64,000 nt of DNA from a virus. Position 1 is the stretch's first letter, and every line of letters starts with the position of its first letter. Position numbers and translations under genes: made by a program. Of this stretch, positions 3,001 to 39,699 are shown piece after piece. The notes under the pieces are model-generated. The model was not told the origin of the DNA. It worked only from the letters and a program-made list of their open reading frames with translations, and made no database searches. The stretch is from IMG/VR virus record IMGVR_UViG_3300042988_000771, positions 14,016-78,015 of that record. The stretch is one strand, 5' to 3'.

Positions 3001-3356
3001 CAGTCGTAGGTGTTGCTGCCGAAGGAGTGGATGCGCGTGCTCGCCGTGCTGGAACTCGCCCTCTCCTCCCTCATGGTCCGGATGCGCGAGTGCCTCTCGT
3101 CAACCCCATAGCCATCATCCCTCTGCTTCATGCGCATGGGAATGACGTCCCCTAGATCCGCGACAACGTGCGGCAGGGAGAAGACCGCATATTCTCCCCA
3201 GTCCTCGTACTCGAACAGCGTGGTCTTGTAGCCCACCGCGAGGACGCTCTCCGCATACACCGTGACGGTGTTCCCGGTCTGCTCGTTGAACCGCGTGAGC
3301 GACACCTGCGAGGCGGCCGTCTCGCCCGTGACGGTGTTGAGCCAGTAGACCTTCAC
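3000..3356 (-). CDS. Hypothetical protein
   Basis: GTG start overlaps the upstream stop (GTGA); VKVYWLNTVTG... Confidence 0.6.
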   Translation of the reverse strand: MKVYWLNTVTGETAASQVSLTRFNEQTGNTVTVYAESVLAVGYKTTLFEYEDWGEYAVFSLPHVVADLGDVIPMRMKQRDDGYGVDERHSRIRTMREERASSSTASTRIHSFGSNTYD

Positions 3357-5176
3357 GTGGGCACGCCCTTGTCGAGCCACGGGGCGAAGGCGACATGTCC
3401 CAGCCACGAGCTGGCCCTGATCTGGGAGACAGAGTGCGGCTCCCAGTCTGGCGTGGGAATCGTCCGCCAGTCGTTCGTGTATGCCAGCACGTCACCCGCG
3501 GTAGTCAACTGGCGATAGTTGATGGAAGACCCGCCGTACTGGTAGAACAACATGTCCCTTGGGCTGATGGGCATTCGCTCCCAGAACTGCTCGCCTAGGC
3601 TCTCTATCGAACTGAGCGGTGGAGTGGCCCCTGTCCTATTGGGCCCCCACGGGGAGTTGAGGTCGCGCAGCTCGTAGTACCCGCCTCCTCGGTCAGTGGA
3701 GTCGATCTTGAACGTCATCGTCCCGGCTCCCCTACTCATCCACCCAGTGTTGCCGCACGGGTAGCTGTCGTAGCTGTAGTTCCTCCCCTGGATGGGATCG
3801 ACGCTGTACTCCCAGTAGGGAGGGCTGATGTCCTGATATCCCGCGACCGAGTGGTAGAAGGGACCGCCATACCCGAGGACGTCGTATGGGGTGGCGCCAC
3901 CGTCGTCCAGCTCCTCGTCCGTGGGCCACCGTGTGTCGATCTCCACATGGAAGTCGTGATAGCCGGGTGGCGGGATCGGGATGTCGAACGACACGGATGC
4001 CGTGCACCATTCGGTGTAGTGGATGCTGCCCATGCTCGTGCCGAGGTAGATGTGCCCGGTCCCGTACCCGATGTTCGTGGCCACCACCTCGCCGTTCACC
4101 CACATCGTCCCGTTGTGAGGGCCGTTCGCTGTCATGCGCTTGATGAAGGTCGGGTTGTTCTCGTAGCCGCCGAAGATGCCCGCGAGGAAGTAGCTGCTCC
4201 CCAATCCCCACGGGACCGAGAAGGTCATCGTGCACGACTCTGGGGTGTATACCGTGTCAAGCGTGTACCACGACCCGCCCCCGTAGGACCACCTCTCGCC
4301 GTTCGCATAGTCGGGCACGTAGAAGGTGTAGTCGTACTCCCCCTTGCTCCGCACCTCATTGGGGAACGTGGTCACGTCTTCATCGACAGGGCGCATTCCT
4401 GTCATCAAGCCTGGTTCGTAGGGGTACTCAGGCCAGGTGAACTCGTACGACTCCCATCGGTAGTTCCGCAGGAAGTGCACGGGGTAGATGACCGTCCCAC
4501 TGCTGCCCTCCAGGGACGAGTACATGCCGAAGTCGTTCCACCAGAACGGAGGAGTCGTGTTCTTCCACAGAAGCCTGTCGCCGGTGACGAACGACAGGAT
4601 CTCGCCCGAGTAGGGGTCCTCTTCGTAGGCATGGTCGATCTGCCTTTCCAGGACGTGAGCGCCAGTCAGGTCCCAGCCGTCGATGACGTAATCGTCGTAG
4701 ATGAAGATCCTCTGCGAGTCCTGACTCACAAACAGCGCTCCTGACTTCAGGCTGCTGTTCTGGAGAAGGATCTTGGTCACCTTGAGCTTCGACTTGCTCC
4801 GCTCGATGATGAGGGCGAATGTCTCCGTCTCGGGGTCCGCCCAGTTGTCCGGGTACGTGGCTACGCACAGCCCTGCATCGTTGAACGCGGTGTTGAACCT
4901 CTGGTCGGCCTCGAACCCGACCACGTAGGTGTCGATCACGATGGCGGGGATGTTCGTTATAGGGCTCGTCCGCCACAGCTGGAGCACCCGGTGATCTGCA
5001 TCGGTCCATGTCGTAGTGACGAAGTAGTCAGTGTCCAGGACTCCGACGATCCACGTCCCTGCGACTTCGCCACTGGGCACGTAGGTTTCGTAGTTGAATC
5101 CCCCGTTGTACGTTCCCGTCAGCGGCTGCGGCACCTCGGGAGAGGGAACCTTGGCAGGATCGAAGGGGTAGGCCAC
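3353..5176 (-). CDS. Minor tail protein, possibly receptor-binding
   Basis: 607 aa rich in Tyr/Trp/Gly/Thr; last gene of the minor tail cluster. Confidence 0.6.
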   Translation of the reverse strand: MAYPFDPAKVPSPEVPQPLTGTYNGGFNYETYVPSGEVAGTWIVGVLDTDYFVTTTWTDADHRVLQLWRTSPITNIPAIVIDTYVVGFEADQRFNTAFNDAGLCVATYPDNWADPETETFALIIERSKSKLKVTKILLQNSSLKSGALFVSQDSQRIFIYDDYVIDGWDLTGAHVLERQIDHAYEEDPYSGEILSFVTGDRLLWKNTTPPFWWNDFGMYSSLEGSSGTVIYPVHFLRNYRWESYEFTWPEYPYEPGLMTGMRPVDEDVTTFPNEVRSKGEYDYTFYVPDYANGERWSYGGGSWYTLDTVYTPESCTMTFSVPWGLGSSYFLAGIFGGYENNPTFIKRMTANGPHNGTMWVNGEVVATNIGYGTGHIYLGTSMGSIHYTEWCTASVSFDIPIPPPGYHDFHVEIDTRWPTDEELDDGGATPYDVLGYGGPFYHSVAGYQDISPPYWEYSVDPIQGRNYSYDSYPCGNTGWMSRGAGTMTFKIDSTDRGGGYYELRDLNSPWGPNRTGATPPLSSIESLGEQFWERMPISPRDMLFYQYGGSSINYRQLTTAGDVLAYTNDWRTIPTPDWEPHSVSQIRASSWLGHVAFAPWLDKGVPT

Positions 5177-5178
5177 GG

Positions 5179-7776
5179 CTACCTCGTGCTCAGGTCGCGG
5201 TACGCACGGCCCTTGACGTAGATCCAGCCAGCGTCACCGCTGACCACCTCGCCATCCTCGAACTGCGCATAGAGGGCAACACCGATGGAGATGCCGTTCA
5301 GGCCCGTCAGGACCTCCGTCCTGTTCTTGCCCTCCTCGCTGGGGTTGAAGTCCTTGTTCTGCCCAGAGAAGTCGAACGACCAGCCAGCGCCGTCCACCAT
5401 CATGCCCGTGGGGGTGGCGATGCCGTCCTTCATCCTCGGAGAGTAGCCAGCAGGGCGCTCGTAGGTGCCCCAGCCGATGATGAAGCCCTCCTGCGTGCGC
5501 GGGGCATACAGGTCGGGGTTGGGCCAGGGATTGCCGTTGGGCTGCCTGCTCTCGAAGGCGTTGGGGAACAGGGCAGCGTGCTGCGAGGTGTCGGGGTTGA
5601 GCGGCATGGACGATCGGTCGATGTTCCACACGTAGTAGAAGCTGACGTGGAACTCCACGGGCGCGAGCGTGCCGTCCTCGTAGTAGGCGGCGAACTCGGT
5701 GCGGTTGATCGACCCTGCCTGGGCCAGCAGCATGGGCATGAAGGCCCAGCGACGGTTCTGGTCGGCATCTCCCGCGTGCACGGCCACGTAGGGGTTCTTC
5801 CCCTGGTGGACGTCCTTGGTCACCGTGTTGAGCATCTTCTCCCCCATGAGGATGTGCCTGGGGGTGTTCGGCCAGTCGGTGATGGTGGTGCGATGGTCGG
5901 TCTTGTAGAACTTGGATGGCGGGTCGGACAAGGTGCTGACCTCCCCGTCCAAGTGGGGGAAGGACGTGCTCCAGTCCGTGAAGCGCTGGGAGCGCGGGAA
6001 GTAGCCCGAGCCAGCGGTGTTGTTCCACGGGTAGACGAGGTCGTCGATCATCACCGATCGCTTGTTGACCTGGAGCGCCTTGATGGGTGTGAGGGTGTCA
6101 CGACCGGAGGCGATGGCCTCCTCCACGGTCAGCAGGTCGCGGAACTTGGTGTCCACCGTCAGGGAGACCGACCCGCCCTGGGGGTTCATGTTCACCTGCG
6201 AGATGTGGAACTTGTTGATCCCCTGCTCCTCGGTGTTGAAGCCGTTGAAGCCCTTGACCAGGATGCACATGCCCGCGCGGATGTCCCACTTGCACACGGG
6301 GTCGCCATTGGAGTCGCGCAGGTCCACCTGGATGGTGATCTCCCCTGACCAGCCGGGGTCCTTGTCCCGCTCCAGCCAGTTCTCCGAGATCTCCTGCGCA
6401 TCGGCGAGGTTGATCCCATCGGGGAACTGCGCCATGCGCTCGGCCACCACGATGCCCTCGGTGCGCTCCGTCCAGCCCTCGTAGCCGTCATAGAGCCGCT
6501 GCACCTGGTCGTCGCTCCAGTAGAGCTCGGCCGGGTTCTTGGGGCTGGGCGTGGGGTCACGCAGCTCAGGGATGTCAGGATCGGTCGGGAGGGGCTCGTA
6601 GCCGTAGTGGTAGACGTTGATGCCCCGGACGTCCTTGATGCTCGCCAGCGGCTCCCATGCGCTCCACGGGGCATCGTCAGGCTGGAAGACCGTCGTCCAC
6701 GAGGTGTCGTCCATGCCGCGGCCGTTGCCGAACACCACGTTGGAGGCCTGATTGCCATCCCTGTTGACGCGCACCTCCACGCCCGGCTGCCCGTACCAGC
6801 ACACCAGGTCGGGCACGCGCGTCTGCTTGCGCACGTACAGGCGCGGGATGCGGCCGGGGTCCTTGGTGATCGTCCACTGGTCGCCCTTCATCAGGGCTGT
6901 GGAGGAGTCGGACTTGGTGTAGAGGATGCTCAGCTGGCCCTGGATGTAGCCCGTCAGGGCCTTCTCCCATGACCCCGAGTTGCGCGTGACGAAGCCCGTG
7001 AAGGGCGGGTCGGGCTTGACCACGTAGGTCGACAGGTCCGGGTCCCACTCGGTCCCACCGGGGTAGATGCCCGTGGGCACGTAGCGCGGGCCGAGGTCGC
7101 GGTACTTCTTGCGCTTGGCGACGGTGTAGCGGCGCGTCCAGTCCTCGCCGTCCCTGATCACGCAGTCCTTGGAGTCGGGGACCGTATCGGTGTAGGGGCC
7201 GTCCCCGAACTCGATCACCAGCGGCTGCGTCCACAGCCCGCGCCTGCGCGGGTCGAAGTAGCGGGCGATCATCGACTCCACGGTCTTGGGGCGCCACGGG
7301 AACAGGGGCTTGGCGAAGTAGCGATCCAGTTGGTACAGGCAGCCCTGGCAGGTGACCGATGTCCCTTCGGGAGAGGGATCGAGGCTGACGAAGAAGCCCT
7401 CCCACATGGGCAGGATGGGATCGCCCAACTGGTCCTTCTCGTGCAGATAGAGCGTGCGCTGGTTGGTGATGGGGTCGATGACCAACTGCTCGCCTGTGTT
7501 CCACTGCGTGGAGGTGCAGGGCAGCCAGTAGATGTCGACGTTGGTGAACTCCTTGAGCCACGGCAGGCTGGTCACCCCGTCGAAGCCTGTCACCTGGGCG
7601 AACTTGAGCACGGCCGTGGCATCCCCGAAGGGGTCGGCGAAGGTCATGTTCTCCACGACTGTGGGCACGCCGCGAAGGTAGGTGACGTCGTACTCGTCCC
7701 CCTTGGTGTTCCACACCTTGATCCAGAACAGCCCGTACCCGTTCGGGTTGACGCTGGTGTCGTAGGTCCAGCTCAT
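5179..7776 (-). CDS. Minor tail protein (hub/Tal-like)
   Basis: 865 aa; WEGFF, CQG.LYQLD, NVVFGNG, SGEITI...IRAG, ISQV patterns of tail hub proteins; follows Dit. Confidence 0.75.
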   Translation of the reverse strand: MSWTYDTSVNPNGYGLFWIKVWNTKGDEYDVTYLRGVPTVVENMTFADPFGDATAVLKFAQVTGFDGVTSLPWLKEFTNVDIYWLPCTSTQWNTGEQLVIDPITNQRTLYLHEKDQLGDPILPMWEGFFVSLDPSPEGTSVTCQGCLYQLDRYFAKPLFPWRPKTVESMIARYFDPRRRGLWTQPLVIEFGDGPYTDTVPDSKDCVIRDGEDWTRRYTVAKRKKYRDLGPRYVPTGIYPGGTEWDPDLSTYVVKPDPPFTGFVTRNSGSWEKALTGYIQGQLSILYTKSDSSTALMKGDQWTITKDPGRIPRLYVRKQTRVPDLVCWYGQPGVEVRVNRDGNQASNVVFGNGRGMDDTSWTTVFQPDDAPWSAWEPLASIKDVRGINVYHYGYEPLPTDPDIPELRDPTPSPKNPAELYWSDDQVQRLYDGYEGWTERTEGIVVAERMAQFPDGINLADAQEISENWLERDKDPGWSGEITIQVDLRDSNGDPVCKWDIRAGMCILVKGFNGFNTEEQGINKFHISQVNMNPQGGSVSLTVDTKFRDLLTVEEAIASGRDTLTPIKALQVNKRSVMIDDLVYPWNNTAGSGYFPRSQRFTDWSTSFPHLDGEVSTLSDPPSKFYKTDHRTTITDWPNTPRHILMGEKMLNTVTKDVHQGKNPYVAVHAGDADQNRRWAFMPMLLAQAGSINRTEFAAYYEDGTLAPVEFHVSFYYVWNIDRSSMPLNPDTSQHAALFPNAFESRQPNGNPWPNPDLYAPRTQEGFIIGWGTYERPAGYSPRMKDGIATPTGMMVDGAGWSFDFSGQNKDFNPSEEGKNRTEVLTGLNGISIGVALYAQFEDGEVVSGDAGWIYVKGRAYRDLSTR

Positions 7777-23020: not shown

Positions 23021-23047
23021 ACCCACCACAGTCCTCGCATGTGGGGC

Positions 23048-23080
23048 AAAAGGAAAGGCCCCCAGGTTTCCCTAGGGGCC
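23048..23080 (-). terminator. Intrinsic terminator ending the replication operon
   Basis: GGCCCCTAGG-GAAA-CCTGGGGGCC followed by TTTCCTTTT. Confidence 0.8.
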
Positions 23081-23234
23081 GTCCTCGGTCAACTAACGGC
23101 CAAGGCCGGTCGTCTACCTACTTCCCCACCTACGGGATTTCAGGTCCCGCTGGAGTCCTCGGGCCACGGGGGTCCTGAGGCGCTTGAGTCCGGTTCCCTC
23201 GCAGGTTCCGGTCCGTGGTTCAGCAAGGAGGAAT

Positions 23235-31825: not shown

Positions 31826-32647
31826 CTACCTTTGAGTAGATGTAGATGCAAGTGTCTTTGCCAAAGTATCCGAACGTGTATCAAGGTCCATCTCGCCAAG
31901 GTCCTTGAAGCGGTCGGACCAGAACAGGCGGCGGGTCAGGACGCCCGCGAGGTTGAGCGCCCACTCCGCCTTGCTGGCGCCCAGATGCCCCGCCCTGTCC
32001 ATGTCGTAGGCGATCCAGACGATGCGTGGGCCCAGCGCCACGATCTGCTTGACCTGCTTGTCGTCCAGCAGCGAGCCGTAGGACCCAATGGCATCATGCC
32101 CTGCCTGCCTGACAGCGCAGACGTCCATCGCGCCCTCCACGAGCACCAGGACGTCGGTCTGCACCAACTCGGGTACGCCGAACAGCAGCTCGGTCTTGCG
32201 TACGCCCTTGGGGTAGCGGTACTTGGGTCCACCGGGGTCGTCGATGTTGCGGTGCACCACGCCCAGCGGCCTGCCGTTCATGGCGCGGATCGGGTAGCAG
32301 GGCTGGTCCTTGAACCCGTCCCAGCCGAGACGGTAGGTGCGGGAGGTCTCCTCCTCGAAGCGGGCGATCCAGTAGTCGTGCACGGGGCCGGAGTCGAACT
32401 GGTCCAGCCACGACTCGGACTTCTCCAGCGACAGGTAGTCCAGCGTCTCCATGGCCTGGTCCAGCAGGAGGTCGACATCGGGGGTGTAGCCCTGCGTCGT
32501 GCCCTTGGCCCCGCAGACCATGCACACCCACTTGCCGGTGTTCACGTTCACCCGCGCCGAGGGGTTGGTGTCGTCGTGCTTGGGACAGGTGAACGATCGC
32601 CACTGGCCATGCCCCTTGGCCAGCGCCTGGTCCAACGTGATGAGCAT
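31826..32647 (-). CDS. DNA primase (Zn finger plus TOPRIM)
   Basis: CP.H.D..PS..VN...W.C..CG..G, PKY, LVEG.MD, YD.D.AG, KD. Confidence 0.93.
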   Translation of the reverse strand: MLITLDQALAKGHGQWRSFTCPKHDDTNPSARVNVNTGKWVCMVCGAKGTTQGYTPDVDLLLDQAMETLDYLSLEKSESWLDQFDSGPVHDYWIARFEEETSRTYRLGWDGFKDQPCYPIRAMNGRPLGVVHRNIDDPGGPKYRYPKGVRKTELLFGVPELVQTDVLVLVEGAMDVCAVRQAGHDAIGSYGSLLDDKQVKQIVALGPRIVWIAYDMDRAGHLGASKAEWALNLAGVLTRRLFWSDRFKDLGEMDLDTRSDTLAKTLASTSTQR

Positions 32648-33912
32648 CAGTCGTCCTCCTCCATCTGCGCGTCGCGCATGGCGATCTCCTTGGCCCGCTC
32701 CATCTTGATCTCCTCGAACCGCCCCTCGTTGGGCAGGAACATCGTGGAGTAGATGACTCCCGACTCCCCCGAGCGATTGGCGTCGATGAGGTAGGTGGCG
32801 ACCGACTTGCTGCGGCGCTTCATGGTGACGATGACGTCGGCGTCCTGACCGAGGGCGTCGGACTGCGCGAGGTTCTTGGTGCGCGGTGGCTTCCAGCCCT
32901 TGACCTCGCCCTCGCGGTTGATCTGCGCGGCAGCGACGATGGGGACGGAGTTGACCTGCGCGATCTCCTTGGTGATGTTGGAGATCGCGGCCATCATGCG
33001 CCAGTCCTCCACCGCCCTCTTGCCGAACGGGCTGATCAGCAGGCCCATGTGGTCGATCACGGCGAACTCGGTCTCCTTGGTGTGGGCGGCGATGGTCGCC
33101 GTGGAGATGCCGCCCTTGGAGGTGTCGATGACGAACAGTTCCGCACCGTTGAGGTGCTCGTTGATCTGCCCGACGAGCTTGCGGTAGCGGATGGGATCGA
33201 AGTGGCGCCCGTGCAGGTCCGTGTGCCGCACGTCCCTGATGCCCAACTCGTAGGCGAGCATGACGTGGATGCGGGTCATCACCTGCTTGCTCGGCATCTC
33301 ACAGGAGAACAGCGTCGTGCGCCTGCCCGCGAGCAGCGCGTGGACGATCATGCTCGCCAGCGTCCATGACTTGCCCTGCTTGAGCCGGGCGGCGACCACC
33401 CAGAAGTCCCCAGCAGAAGGCCCACCCGTCGTCTTCTGAAGGGTGGGCCAGGGCATTTCGATGGAGTCGATCTTCTCGTCGTAGGTGTCCAGGAAGCTGA
33501 GGTCCTGCAACGCATTCGTCAGCTTGTAGGTGGCGAAGTTGCTGGGGTGCTGGATGGACGAGAAGAACGCGTAGGCCTCGTCGGTGTCGCCGTTCCGCAA
33601 CGCCTCTCCTGCTCCTTGGAGTGCGGTCACCATGGTGCGGTGCGTGTGCTTGTCCTTGACCTCGTCGCAGATGAAGCCGACATCGACGAACGCCTCGGAG
33701 TAGGGGAAGTCGGGGTACTTGGTCTTCAGCGCCTCGGCGCTGGGCTGCTTGTCGTAGTTCGACGGGTAGGCGATGAGCCAGCGGTACTCCGACTGGTAGG
33801 TCTGGAACATCTCCGGAACCACCCCATACAGAGCCGCGGCCGAGGCATCGCCGATGTTGATCAGCGCACTGATCAACCTGGACTCGGTATTCGGTCGTTC
33901 GGGCATGGGCAC
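32647..33912 (-). CDS. dnaB: DnaB-like replicative helicase
   Basis: AARLKQGKS, FSCEM, IDHM.L, AAQINR, AQSDA..QDAD. Confidence 0.93.
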   Translation of the reverse strand: MPMPERPNTESRLISALINIGDASAAALYGVVPEMFQTYQSEYRWLIAYPSNYDKQPSAEALKTKYPDFPYSEAFVDVGFICDEVKDKHTHRTMVTALQGAGEALRNGDTDEAYAFFSSIQHPSNFATYKLTNALQDLSFLDTYDEKIDSIEMPWPTLQKTTGGPSAGDFWVVAARLKQGKSWTLASMIVHALLAGRRTTLFSCEMPSKQVMTRIHVMLAYELGIRDVRHTDLHGRHFDPIRYRKLVGQINEHLNGAELFVIDTSKGGISTATIAAHTKETEFAVIDHMGLLISPFGKRAVEDWRMMAAISNITKEIAQVNSVPIVAAAQINREGEVKGWKPPRTKNLAQSDALGQDADVIVTMKRRSKSVATYLIDANRSGESGVIYSTMFLPNEGRFEEIKMERAKEIAMRDAQMEEDD

Positions 33913-37223: not shown

Positions 37224-37253
37224 TTGACACTAAGTGTTAGGGTGTGGCATACT
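37224..37253 (+). promoter_or_regulatory. Early promoter TTGACA-18-CATACT (TGTGG extension)
   Basis: Consensus -35; shares GTGTGG-yAnACT with the 36038 and 39012 promoters. Confidence 0.7.
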
Positions 37254-37336: not shown

Positions 37337-37504
37337 GTGGCTACCACGACAACCGTTCGTACCGCTGGTCACCTGAGCGAGATGCTGGTGGACGGCGTCC
37401 AAATCCTGGTCGGATGCACCTGTGGCTGGACGTGCAGCTGCGCAGTCTCCGACCAGGTCACGGCGTACGCGATGTACGCCTCCCACGCCAAGGCTGCTCA
37501 GTAG
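37337..37504 (+). CDS. 55-aa Zn-binding peptide
   Basis: GH...CTCGW...H; RBS AAGGAGTCATC. Confidence 0.55.
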   Translation: MATTTTVRTAGHLSEMLVDGVQILVGCTCGWTCSCAVSDQVTAYAMYASHAKAAQ

Positions 37505-37512
37505 CCAAGGCG

Positions 37513-37557
37513 AGCCCGCATAGGCGCAAGTGCCAGGTTCGAATCCTGGGCGGGCTG
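37513..37557 (+). ncRNA. Minimal tRNA mimic (7-bp acceptor stem plus canonical T-arm)
   Basis: AGCCCGC-ATAGGCGCAAGTG-CCAGG TTCGAAT CCTGG-GCGGGCT-G. Confidence 0.65.
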
Positions 37558-37607
37558 CTAAGCCCCAGTCAACCGGCTGGGGCTTCTTCAATGATGAGGG
37601 AGTCATC

Positions 37608-37910
37608 ATGAGCATCTTCACCGACTTCACCGCAGCCCGCGAGACCCGCTACCCCGTGGGTGCCTATGTCGGGTACGACGGTTCCGTCGCAGAGTTCAAG
37701 GGCCACTGCGCCTTCGTGACGGACAGCGTCACGCTGGGCAGCGAGACCCGCTACACCCTCCGGTTCGGTAGCCGGGACGCCCTGACCAACGTCAGGGGCC
37801 AGTCGATCTACTACGTCGCCATCACGCCTGAGACGCGTGAGCGCGGCGAGGCCATCCGCCGAGCGTGGATGCTCAAGCGGGGCCGACTGAACGACCCCTA
37901 CGCGAAGTAG
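37608..37910 (+). CDS. Hypothetical protein (SH3-like beta pattern)
   Basis: RBS GAGGGAGTCATC-ATG. Confidence 0.65.
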   Translation: MSIFTDFTAARETRYPVGAYVGYDGSVAEFKGHCAFVTDSVTLGSETRYTLRFGSRDALTNVRGQSIYYVAITPETRERGEAIRRAWMLKRGRLNDPYAK

Positions 37911-37916
37911 GGAGCA

Positions 37917-37971
37917 GGGCGAAACGCCGTGAGGCGTCCGCGGGTTGGTCCCGCGCTGATGAGCCCATCAG
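37917..37971 (+). ncRNA. Type II hammerhead ribozyme
   Basis: GGGC-GAAA-CGCC GTGA GGCG-TC^-CGCGGG TTGGT CCCGCG-CTGATGA-GCCC: all core nucleotides and three stems present. Confidence 0.9.
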
Positions 37972-37991
37972 ACAGCGGTGAGGGAGTCACC

Positions 37992-38168
37992 ATGACCAAA
38001 GACGAGTACATCCGCGCTCAGTTCCAAGCGCAGATCGACGTCGCCTCGCTAGAGCTGACCACCACCCCGCTGGGGCGTCTGCTGGCTGTCGTCAGCGGCA
38101 CTCCTCCCCTGGGGTGGACGAAGGAGCAGTTCGAGTCCGCCGTCGCAGCCCGCGGCGGTGTGCTGTGA
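37992..38168 (+). CDS. Hypothetical protein
   Basis: RBS GAGGGAGTCACC-ATG. Confidence 0.6.
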   Translation: MTKDEYIRAQFQAQIDVASLELTTTPLGRLLAVVSGTPPLGWTKEQFESAVAARGGVL

Positions 38169-39168: not shown

Positions 39169-39699
39169 ATGTCCAAGTCCGACAACGCTCTGACCGTCGC
39201 CAAGATCGCTGGCCTGTTCGCGCTGGCCGGTCTCGCAGGCTACGGCGCCTACGTGCAGGCAGAGGCCGAGGCCGCCACCGAGGCGACCGACGACCTGGCG
39301 ACCCGCTTCGCCAAGGGCCTGCTCACCGAGGAGTACACCTTCTCGGGCATCCGCCGCACCAACGAGAACACCGTCTTCGTCCTCCATGTGGTGGGCAAGG
39401 ATGAGCAGTTCATCGACATCGCCCTCCAGCAGGGCGAGCAGGCGCTCGTGATCGACACCAACCTGCCCGGCGTCAAGGTCGGCAAGGCTGTCGTCATCAC
39501 CAACGAGCGCCTCAGCGCGGAGGTTGACCGCTACGTCCGCACGGGCCACTCCTACTACGCGACCGATCGCCGCGTGCGGTTCTTCAGCATGCCGTTCGGC
39601 CAGCGCAACGAGGCCTTCCTCTTCGAGGTCCTCAAGAAGGGCGAGTTCGTCCCGATGTTCCTCGCGAACACGACGGACATGACCCTCTCGGTGCTCTGA
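39169..39699 (+). CDS. Hypothetical protein with N-terminal TM/signal
   Basis: RBS GAGGGAGTCATC-ATG. Confidence 0.7.
   Translation: MSKSDNALTVAKIAGLFALAGLAGYGAYVQAEAEAATEATDDLATRFAKGLLTEEYTFSGIRRTNENTVFVLHVVGKDEQFIDIALQQGEQALVIDTNLPGVKVGKAVVITNERLSAEVDRYVRTGHSYYATDRRVRFFSMPFGQRNEAFLFEVLKKGEFVPMFLANTTDMTLSVL

Follow-up and report, generated by a model that had tools for sequence, protein, structure and literature searches.

Gene Organization Around the Intergenic Element

The window analyzed here is a stretch of 64,000 nucleotides comprising bases 14016-78015 of a 78,015-bp viral genome (IMG/VR record, 99% complete). A short structured element is located between two genes of the plus strand, in a gene block with the following features.

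37224..37253, plus strand: promoter-like site, TTGACA-18-CATACT with TG (consensus scan)
37609..37910, plus strand: upstream gene, 100 aa, with ATG 37609 after the RBS GAGGGAG, stop codon TAG at 37908-37910 and a GC3 of 0.84
37980..37986, plus strand: RBS GAGGGAG of the downstream gene, 8 nt past the tail of the element (direct read)
37992..38168, plus strand: downstream gene, 58 aa, with ATG 37992

The order of genes and features is a 55-aa ORF (37337-37504), a tRNA-like minihelix and a hairpin, the 100-aa ORF, the ribozyme, the 58-aa ORF and a 200-aa ORF. The mechanically assigned start of the 100-aa ORF is GTG 37530, the first in frame. ATG 37609 is the likelier start codon, because it is preceded by GAGGGAGTCATC, which resembles GAGGGAGTCACC in front of the downstream ATG. 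The putative promoter at 37224-37253 could be the start of the ribozyme-bearing transcript, and we found no terminator-like site between it and position 39300. The original prediction had placed the element on the coding strand in the gap between two cistrons, 6 nt after the stop codon, and this agrees with what we found; the RBS, which had been put about 10 nt past the tail, is 8 nt past it.

Pfam and PHROG searches of these neighboring ORF products returned no family match, and the flanking proteins therefore give no functional clue. A DnaB-type helicase is encoded on the opposite strand at 32647-33912. The flanking genes may be early genes, a reading drawn solely from the adjacency of the replication module and the promoter-like site. 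The DnaB helicase shares only about 31% identity with homologs from Gordonia phages, and the host is probably an actinobacterium.

The placement is typical for hammerheads in phages. In a set of 377 non-redundant copies from phages, the median distance from the stop codon to the ribozyme is 1-2 nt, and that from stem II to the next start codon is 23-27 nt; the corresponding distances in the window are 6 and 25 nt. Only about 15 of 149 genes downstream of phage hammerheads had a Pfam match, among them ArdA, DUF932, GemA, a superinfection immunity protein and SNF2 helicases, a set that fits with early-expressed accessory genes.

Other structured elements were seen in the window. The tRNA-like minihelix (37509-37557) lies between the 55-aa and 100-aa ORFs, 360 nt 5' of the ribozyme, and consists of a 7-bp acceptor-like stem and a CCAGG-UUCGAAU-CCUGG arm. 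It was not called by ARAGORN, which found no tRNA in the window, and is nearly identical in the syntenic contig L020 (about 11749-11797). It may provide this operon with another type of RNA processing site. A 5-bp hairpin, GGUGA/UCACC, at 37977-37991 holds the RBS sequence GGGAG in its loop just 5' of the ATG and is not conserved in L020. A match to the BjrC68 sRNA family on the minus strand at 23047-23117 was below threshold (27.7 bits compared to 39, E 0.005).

The Element Has All Parts of a Type II Hammerhead Ribozyme

The element at 37917-37971 had been described as a complete type II hammerhead, and every part was found at the position given for it. This includes all core nucleotides and the cut site after C37938, which is the consensus position for cleavage, the cleavage itself being predicted. 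The parts are as follows; the subclass and the masked copies used for comparison are described below.

37916, plus strand: unpaired A immediately 5' of stem II; A in 65/69 subclass copies and in 93/93 masked copies
37917..37920, plus strand: stem II 5' strand, GGGC, pairing with 37963-37966 (direct read; stem II pairs covary)
37921..37923, plus strand: core G12 A13 A14 (direct read and Rfam alignment)
37924..37937, plus strand: stem III hairpin, A15.1-U16.1, A-CGCC-GUGA-GGCG-U, 5 bp with a GUGA loop
37938, plus strand: C17, with the predicted cut between 37938 and 37939 (consensus position)
37939..37955, plus strand: stem I hairpin, CGCGGG-UUGGU-CCCGCG, 6 bp with the loop UUGGU
37956..37962, plus strand: core C3-A9, CUGAUGA (direct read and Rfam alignment)
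37963..37966, plus strand: stem II 3' strand, GCCC (direct read; pair covariation)
37967..37971, plus strand: 3' tail AUCAG, the reverse complement of core C3-U7
37956..37971, plus strand: masking hairpin, CUGAUG-AGCC-CAUCAG, 6 bp (folding; N7:partner covariation)

Membership was judged by the criteria given in the methods of Perreault et al. (2011; PMC3088659). The set C3 U4 G5 A6 N7 G8 A9, G12 A13 A14, A15.1, U16.1 and H17 is complete, and the pairs adjoining the core are the standard ones: G-C (10.1-11.1), C-G (1.1-2.1) and A-U (15.1-16.1). All pairs are perfect in stem II (4), stem I (6) and stem III (5). Stem II is open while stems I and III are closed by loops, which is the type II topology. 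Two other arrangements were considered and rejected: a minus-strand hammerhead sharing the palindrome would have the core CUGAUGG, and a stem II lengthened by the tail would need an A-A mismatch.

A structural descriptor found a single site in the 64-kb window, namely this element. In 300 dinucleotide shuffles searched on both strands there were two loose descriptor matches and none with equally good stems, so that fewer than 0.01 such motifs are expected by chance per window. The suggested check against Rfam Hammerhead_II gave a mixed outcome: RF02276 aligned over its full model length, but the score of 29.6 bits is below the gathering score of 37, because stem I is short and the AG-CCA tail is missing. 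At gathering scores no Rfam family matched anywhere in the window, and in a permissive Rfam scan of the whole window Hammerhead_II was the only ribozyme family matched.

We trained a covariance model on 90 hammerheads from other phages, excluding the copies in the window and in contigs L020 and L184; it recovered the element at full length with 70 bits (E about 3e-16). The next match in the window reached 15 bits and is not a hammerhead. No second hammerhead was found by Rfam, by a relaxed descriptor run over all 78 kb, or by the subclass covariance model with filters off. A look for sequencing runs recorded as RNA gave none for this part of the genome. Altogether, we consider it probable that the locus encodes a functional type II hammerhead, predicted to reside in the mRNA of the plus-strand gene block of an uncultivated high-GC 78-kb phage.

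A Phage-Borne Subclass with a Short Stem I

The element is a member of a phage-borne subclass with a short stem I. Its defining features, taken from the present data, are a stem I hairpin of 17 nt, a stem II of 4 bp, an A that precedes stem II and a U that opens loop I. The stem I hairpin is exactly 17 nt long, stem II has 4 bp in 62/71 copies, and the first base of loop I is U in 65/69 subclass copies and in 93/93 masked copies. As judged from this conservation, A37916 and the first loop I base, U37945, are candidates for a tertiary contact that could replace the pseudoknot in the subclass.

In 93 aligned copies every position of stem I was found with four to six standard pair types. These copies had been filtered for pairing beforehand, which makes the percentage of paired positions circular, whereas the variety of pair types is not. 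Family membership aside, conservation and covariation are seen in all three stems and in the masking pair.

In 13 loci holding about 35 copies by the descriptor, Rfam at its gathering score reported one hammerhead. The threshold largely misses the subclass, and phage annotations therefore undercount these ribozymes. Our pattern scans of IMG/VR returned many phage contigs, many of them with two to seven type II hammerheads by the descriptor. One viral contig that bears two masked hammerheads (L093) also has a 66-nt match to the tmRNA model on the minus strand at 6081-6146, with 53.6 bits and above the cut-off.

When 1.1 kb around the site was compared by blastn to 50,697 phage records, only the ribozyme matched, in the Streptomyces phages R4 and phiELB20. 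The R4 homolog is located between gp80 and gp79 (NC_019414), is the closest relative by sequence and scores above the Rfam cut-off. The right-end 4.6 kb of R4 contain six matches to RF02276 above the cut-off, located at 1611-1673, 2113-2173, 2796-2856, 3015-3091, 3912-3976 and 4557-4618 of our R4 segment (L001; 46407-51071, reverse complement). On the same segment the CDS gp75.1 (3898-3999) overlies one ribozyme, and the start of the "acetyltransferase" gp79 (2159) falls inside another; both gene calls are probably in need of revision.

Contig L020 is syntenic with the window phage, with similarity at the protein level from 33000 to about 37600. It retains the element with the same immediate flanks. 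Two base pairs of its stem I are replaced through compensatory double changes (G-C to A-U and G-C to C-G), and the genes to the left and right bear no relation to their counterparts in the window, which means that the ribozyme has been kept across a mosaic joint. In a comparison of window positions 37582-38000 with L020 11820-12425, homology was seen to end about 330 nt 5' of the ribozyme, the ribozyme and its immediate flanks excepted. Hammerheads may be markers of, or even joints for, the exchange of gene cassettes.

The 3' Tail Is Complementary to the Catalytic Core

A pseudoknot between loop I (UUGGU) and the tail (AUCAG) had been proposed, but as stated it was not supported by the subclass. 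We compared loop I with the first 12 nt past stem II and used tails permuted among members as the control. At least four loop-tail pairs were possible in 8/69 copies of the 17-nt stem I class, compared to 9.6 ± 2.4 expected from the permuted tails. The classical class with a long stem I passed the same test, with at least four pairs in 37/44 copies compared to 26 ± 2.3 expected.

It is nevertheless conceivable that AUCAG pairs with loop I, holds stem I parallel to stem II and accelerates cleavage, in which case the match between tail and core would be secondary. Several observations point this way. Five loop-tail pairs are possible in the window, two of them G-U, and the window is one of three RUCAG-tailed copies able to form five. 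The loop sequence UUGGU is unchanged in the window, L020 and L184 despite the changes in stem I. Among RUCAG-tailed copies, 17 of 93 loops (18%) can make at least four pairs with the tail, compared to 1-2 of 59 control loops (2-3%), and for other type II hammerheads the pseudoknot has been proven (PMC3088659). On the other hand, the pseudoknot is out of reach for 82% of the RUCAG-tailed copies, the subclass as a whole has no loop-tail enrichment although the positive control does, and the pairing would engage all five loop nucleotides and leave no linker. The tail also covaries with core position N7 and not with loop I. We therefore regard this explanation as unlikely: the pseudoknot is possible in the window, but the tail is conserved for another role.

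AUCAG has its conserved partner in the catalytic core, CUGAU. The tail pairs with C3-U7 and the last C of stem II pairs with G8, which gives a 6-bp hairpin. This hairpin is conserved and able to hide the core, and the tail is more probably one of its two arms than a pseudoknot partner. The IMG/VR pattern scan for masked copies allowed either pyrimidine at N7 (Y) and either purine at its partner (R), and returned at least 120 contigs. Among at least 112 non-redundant phage copies, the N7:partner combinations were U:A in 65, C:G in 45, U:G in two and C:A in none. In the 93 copies they were UA in 57, CG in 34 and UG in two, with none unpaired. The window has U7 opposite A37967, with the RUCAG tail directly 3' of stem II and the R matching N7.

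In a sample of 134 copies for which the tail was left unconstrained, all six mask pairs were present in 15 (11%), compared to 0/134 for a control 6-mer taken 6 nt further on, and the distribution of pair counts was bimodal. Hammerhead function does not depend on the mask, which only about 11% of subclass members possess. Shorter mask variants with G-U pairs (contigs L027 and L029) speak for pairing in RNA rather than for a DNA palindrome. A DNA palindrome serving as a protein-binding site was considered and found unlikely, given the G-U variants in other phages.

Only 10 stretches with the masked pattern, from mixed phyla, were found in 185,579 species genomes, so the pattern is mainly phage-borne; a more specific pattern scan of the species genomes gave no match. 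In the literature consulted, which lay mostly outside subscription journals, we found no description of the core-masking hairpin or of the features of the subclass.

Energetics of the Two Folds

The hammerhead and the masked fold are mutually exclusive, because the tail adjoins stem II without a linker. For the window we calculated -25.9 kcal/mol for the hammerhead fold and -26.6 kcal/mol for the masked fold, energies that ignore the tertiary contacts and Mg2+ by which natural hammerheads are stabilized. The masked fold was slightly more stable in 101 of the 112 copies listed (at least 112 exist), and in the same copies the masked-minus-hammerhead difference had a median of -1.5 and ranged from -3.8 to +0.6.

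For a growing transcript the hammerhead was the minimum-energy fold when the 3' end was at 37968-37970, and the masked fold took over once G37971 was added. In the ensemble of the uncleaved RNA (37911-37975), considering secondary structure only, stem II had a probability of 3% and the mask 96%. According to this model the mask could keep the ribozyme largely inactive, unless tertiary contacts offset it. The predicted 3' product (37939-37975) folded into two adjacent hairpins with -18.1 kcal/mol (z = -3.3).

A Model for Cleavage and Masking

The most likely role of the element, and the standard reading for such ribozymes, is to cut the polycistronic transcript between the two genes. Self-cleavage in the cell is an inference here, as are the sequence of steps and its consequences for the stability and translation of both messages; the following describes what would be expected. 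During transcription, stems III and I would form first and the core and stem II next, whereupon the RNA would cut itself after C37938. The upstream message would retain its stop codon, and its 3' end would be the stem III hairpin bearing a 2',3'-cyclic phosphate. The downstream message would carry a 5'-OH and start immediately with the stem I hairpin, with its RBS about 25 nt further on. The products would separate, because they are held together by the 4-bp stem II alone. AUCAG would then pair with CUGAU, joined by a pair between G8 and the final C of stem II. Such a mask would hide the core, block re-association and leave two adjacent hairpins at the new 5' end. Since the mask also competes with the active fold before cleavage, it can set the rate of cutting or the fraction of the transcript that is cut as well.

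The best reading is that the mask tunes or locks the predicted cut. We tentatively propose, rating it somewhat short of an even chance, that selection has maintained the alternative hairpin, with the tail as one of its arms, and that this hairpin renders these phage hammerheads bistable, either as an off-switch or as a lock that fires once after cleavage. An alternative, in which the mask acts mainly before cleavage as an attenuator or switch and most transcripts stay uncut until a ribosome, a protein or temperature opens the hairpin, would make cleavage regulated. The slightly greater stability of the masked fold in the window and in most of the listed copies speaks for it, as do the ensemble probabilities. 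Sites of ribosome action moreover adjoin both ends of the element: with the stop codon 6 nt before stem II and the RBS 8 nt past the tail, ribosomes could shift the balance between the folds. The energy model behind these figures omits tertiary contacts and Mg2+, however, no ligand- or protein-binding element is evident, and a lock formed after cleavage fits the same data. We consider this alternative possible but somewhat doubtful.

Far less probable, and in our view very improbable, is that the motif is a decayed or chance structure without activity, or a short conserved DNA sequence that serves mainly as a recombination joint for cassettes. Its score is below the Rfam cut-off, and it sits exactly where homology between the window and L020 breaks off on both sides, as such an explanation would have it. 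Yet the core is intact at every position, the stem I changes relative to L020 are compensatory, the subclass covariance model gives 70 bits, and the shuffles produced no match with comparable stems. The G-U variants of the mask in other phages likewise point to pairing in RNA and not in DNA.

With the preferred reading, in which the mask tunes or locks the cut, the covarying mask bears on whether phage hammerheads are constitutive cutters or tuned and regulated. If the mask acts before cleavage, ribosomes at the adjoining stop codon and RBS could regulate cutting, which would give phage hammerheads a regulatory function.

Comparison with Known Hammerhead Systems

Type II hammerheads of bacteria and prophages were described by Perreault et al. 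(2011; PMC3088659; Rfam RF02276) and have been known in phages since 2011. Self-cleavage has been published for clustered prophage hammerheads, both in vitro and in vivo (PMC3088659), and in Desulfovibrio vulgaris for type II copies located close to phage genes (PMC8782182). The role that they play in phages is still described as open (PMC3088659; PMC6765202). The hammerhead in the window is itself of a known kind in a known setting, and the find is ordinary apart from the masking hairpin; the element is a further clear case of a ribozyme set between a stop codon and an RBS.

The element shares with the type II hammerheads of Perreault et al. (2011) the catalytic core, the permuted topology, the intergenic setting in a phage operon and the presumed cutting of a long transcript. 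It differs from them in its stem I of 17 nt, compared to about 21-24 nt, and in its stem II of 4 bp, compared to 2-3 bp. A pseudoknot of at least four pairs between loop I and the tail is found in most, but not all, type II members (Perreault et al., 2011; PMC3088659); the window lacks the consensus UGG/AGCCA pseudoknot and has the core-masking tail. Compared to the hammerhead between gp80 and gp79 of R4 and phiELB20, stem III and the core are identical, and both elements lie between a stop codon and the next gene. The R4 copy has a long stem I and an AGCC tail and passes the Rfam threshold with 39.3 bits, whereas the copy in the window has a short stem I and an AUCAG tail. R4 also carries six copies in 4.6 kb, while the window phage has one in 78 kb.

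In hammerheads of the sTRSV type, loops I and II contact each other, stem I has about 6 bp and stem II 4 bp, as in the window. The "loop II" of the window element is open, unlike that of the sTRSV type, because the RNA enters and leaves there. The invariant U of loop I and the A at the end of stem II could make the same kind of U-A contact, judging from their conservation.

RiboJ-like synthetic insulators place a hammerhead just before the RBS, where it cuts away the RNA on its 5' side and gives the message a structured leader that is always the same. The window element differs from these in being natural, in its type II topology and in its extra hairpin, which is made of its own core. In viroid hammerheads a competing inactive fold prevents formation of the core and protects the circular RNA genome. 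Compared to these inactive folds, the window element uses a tail of 5 nt, and does so in the mRNA of a DNA phage.
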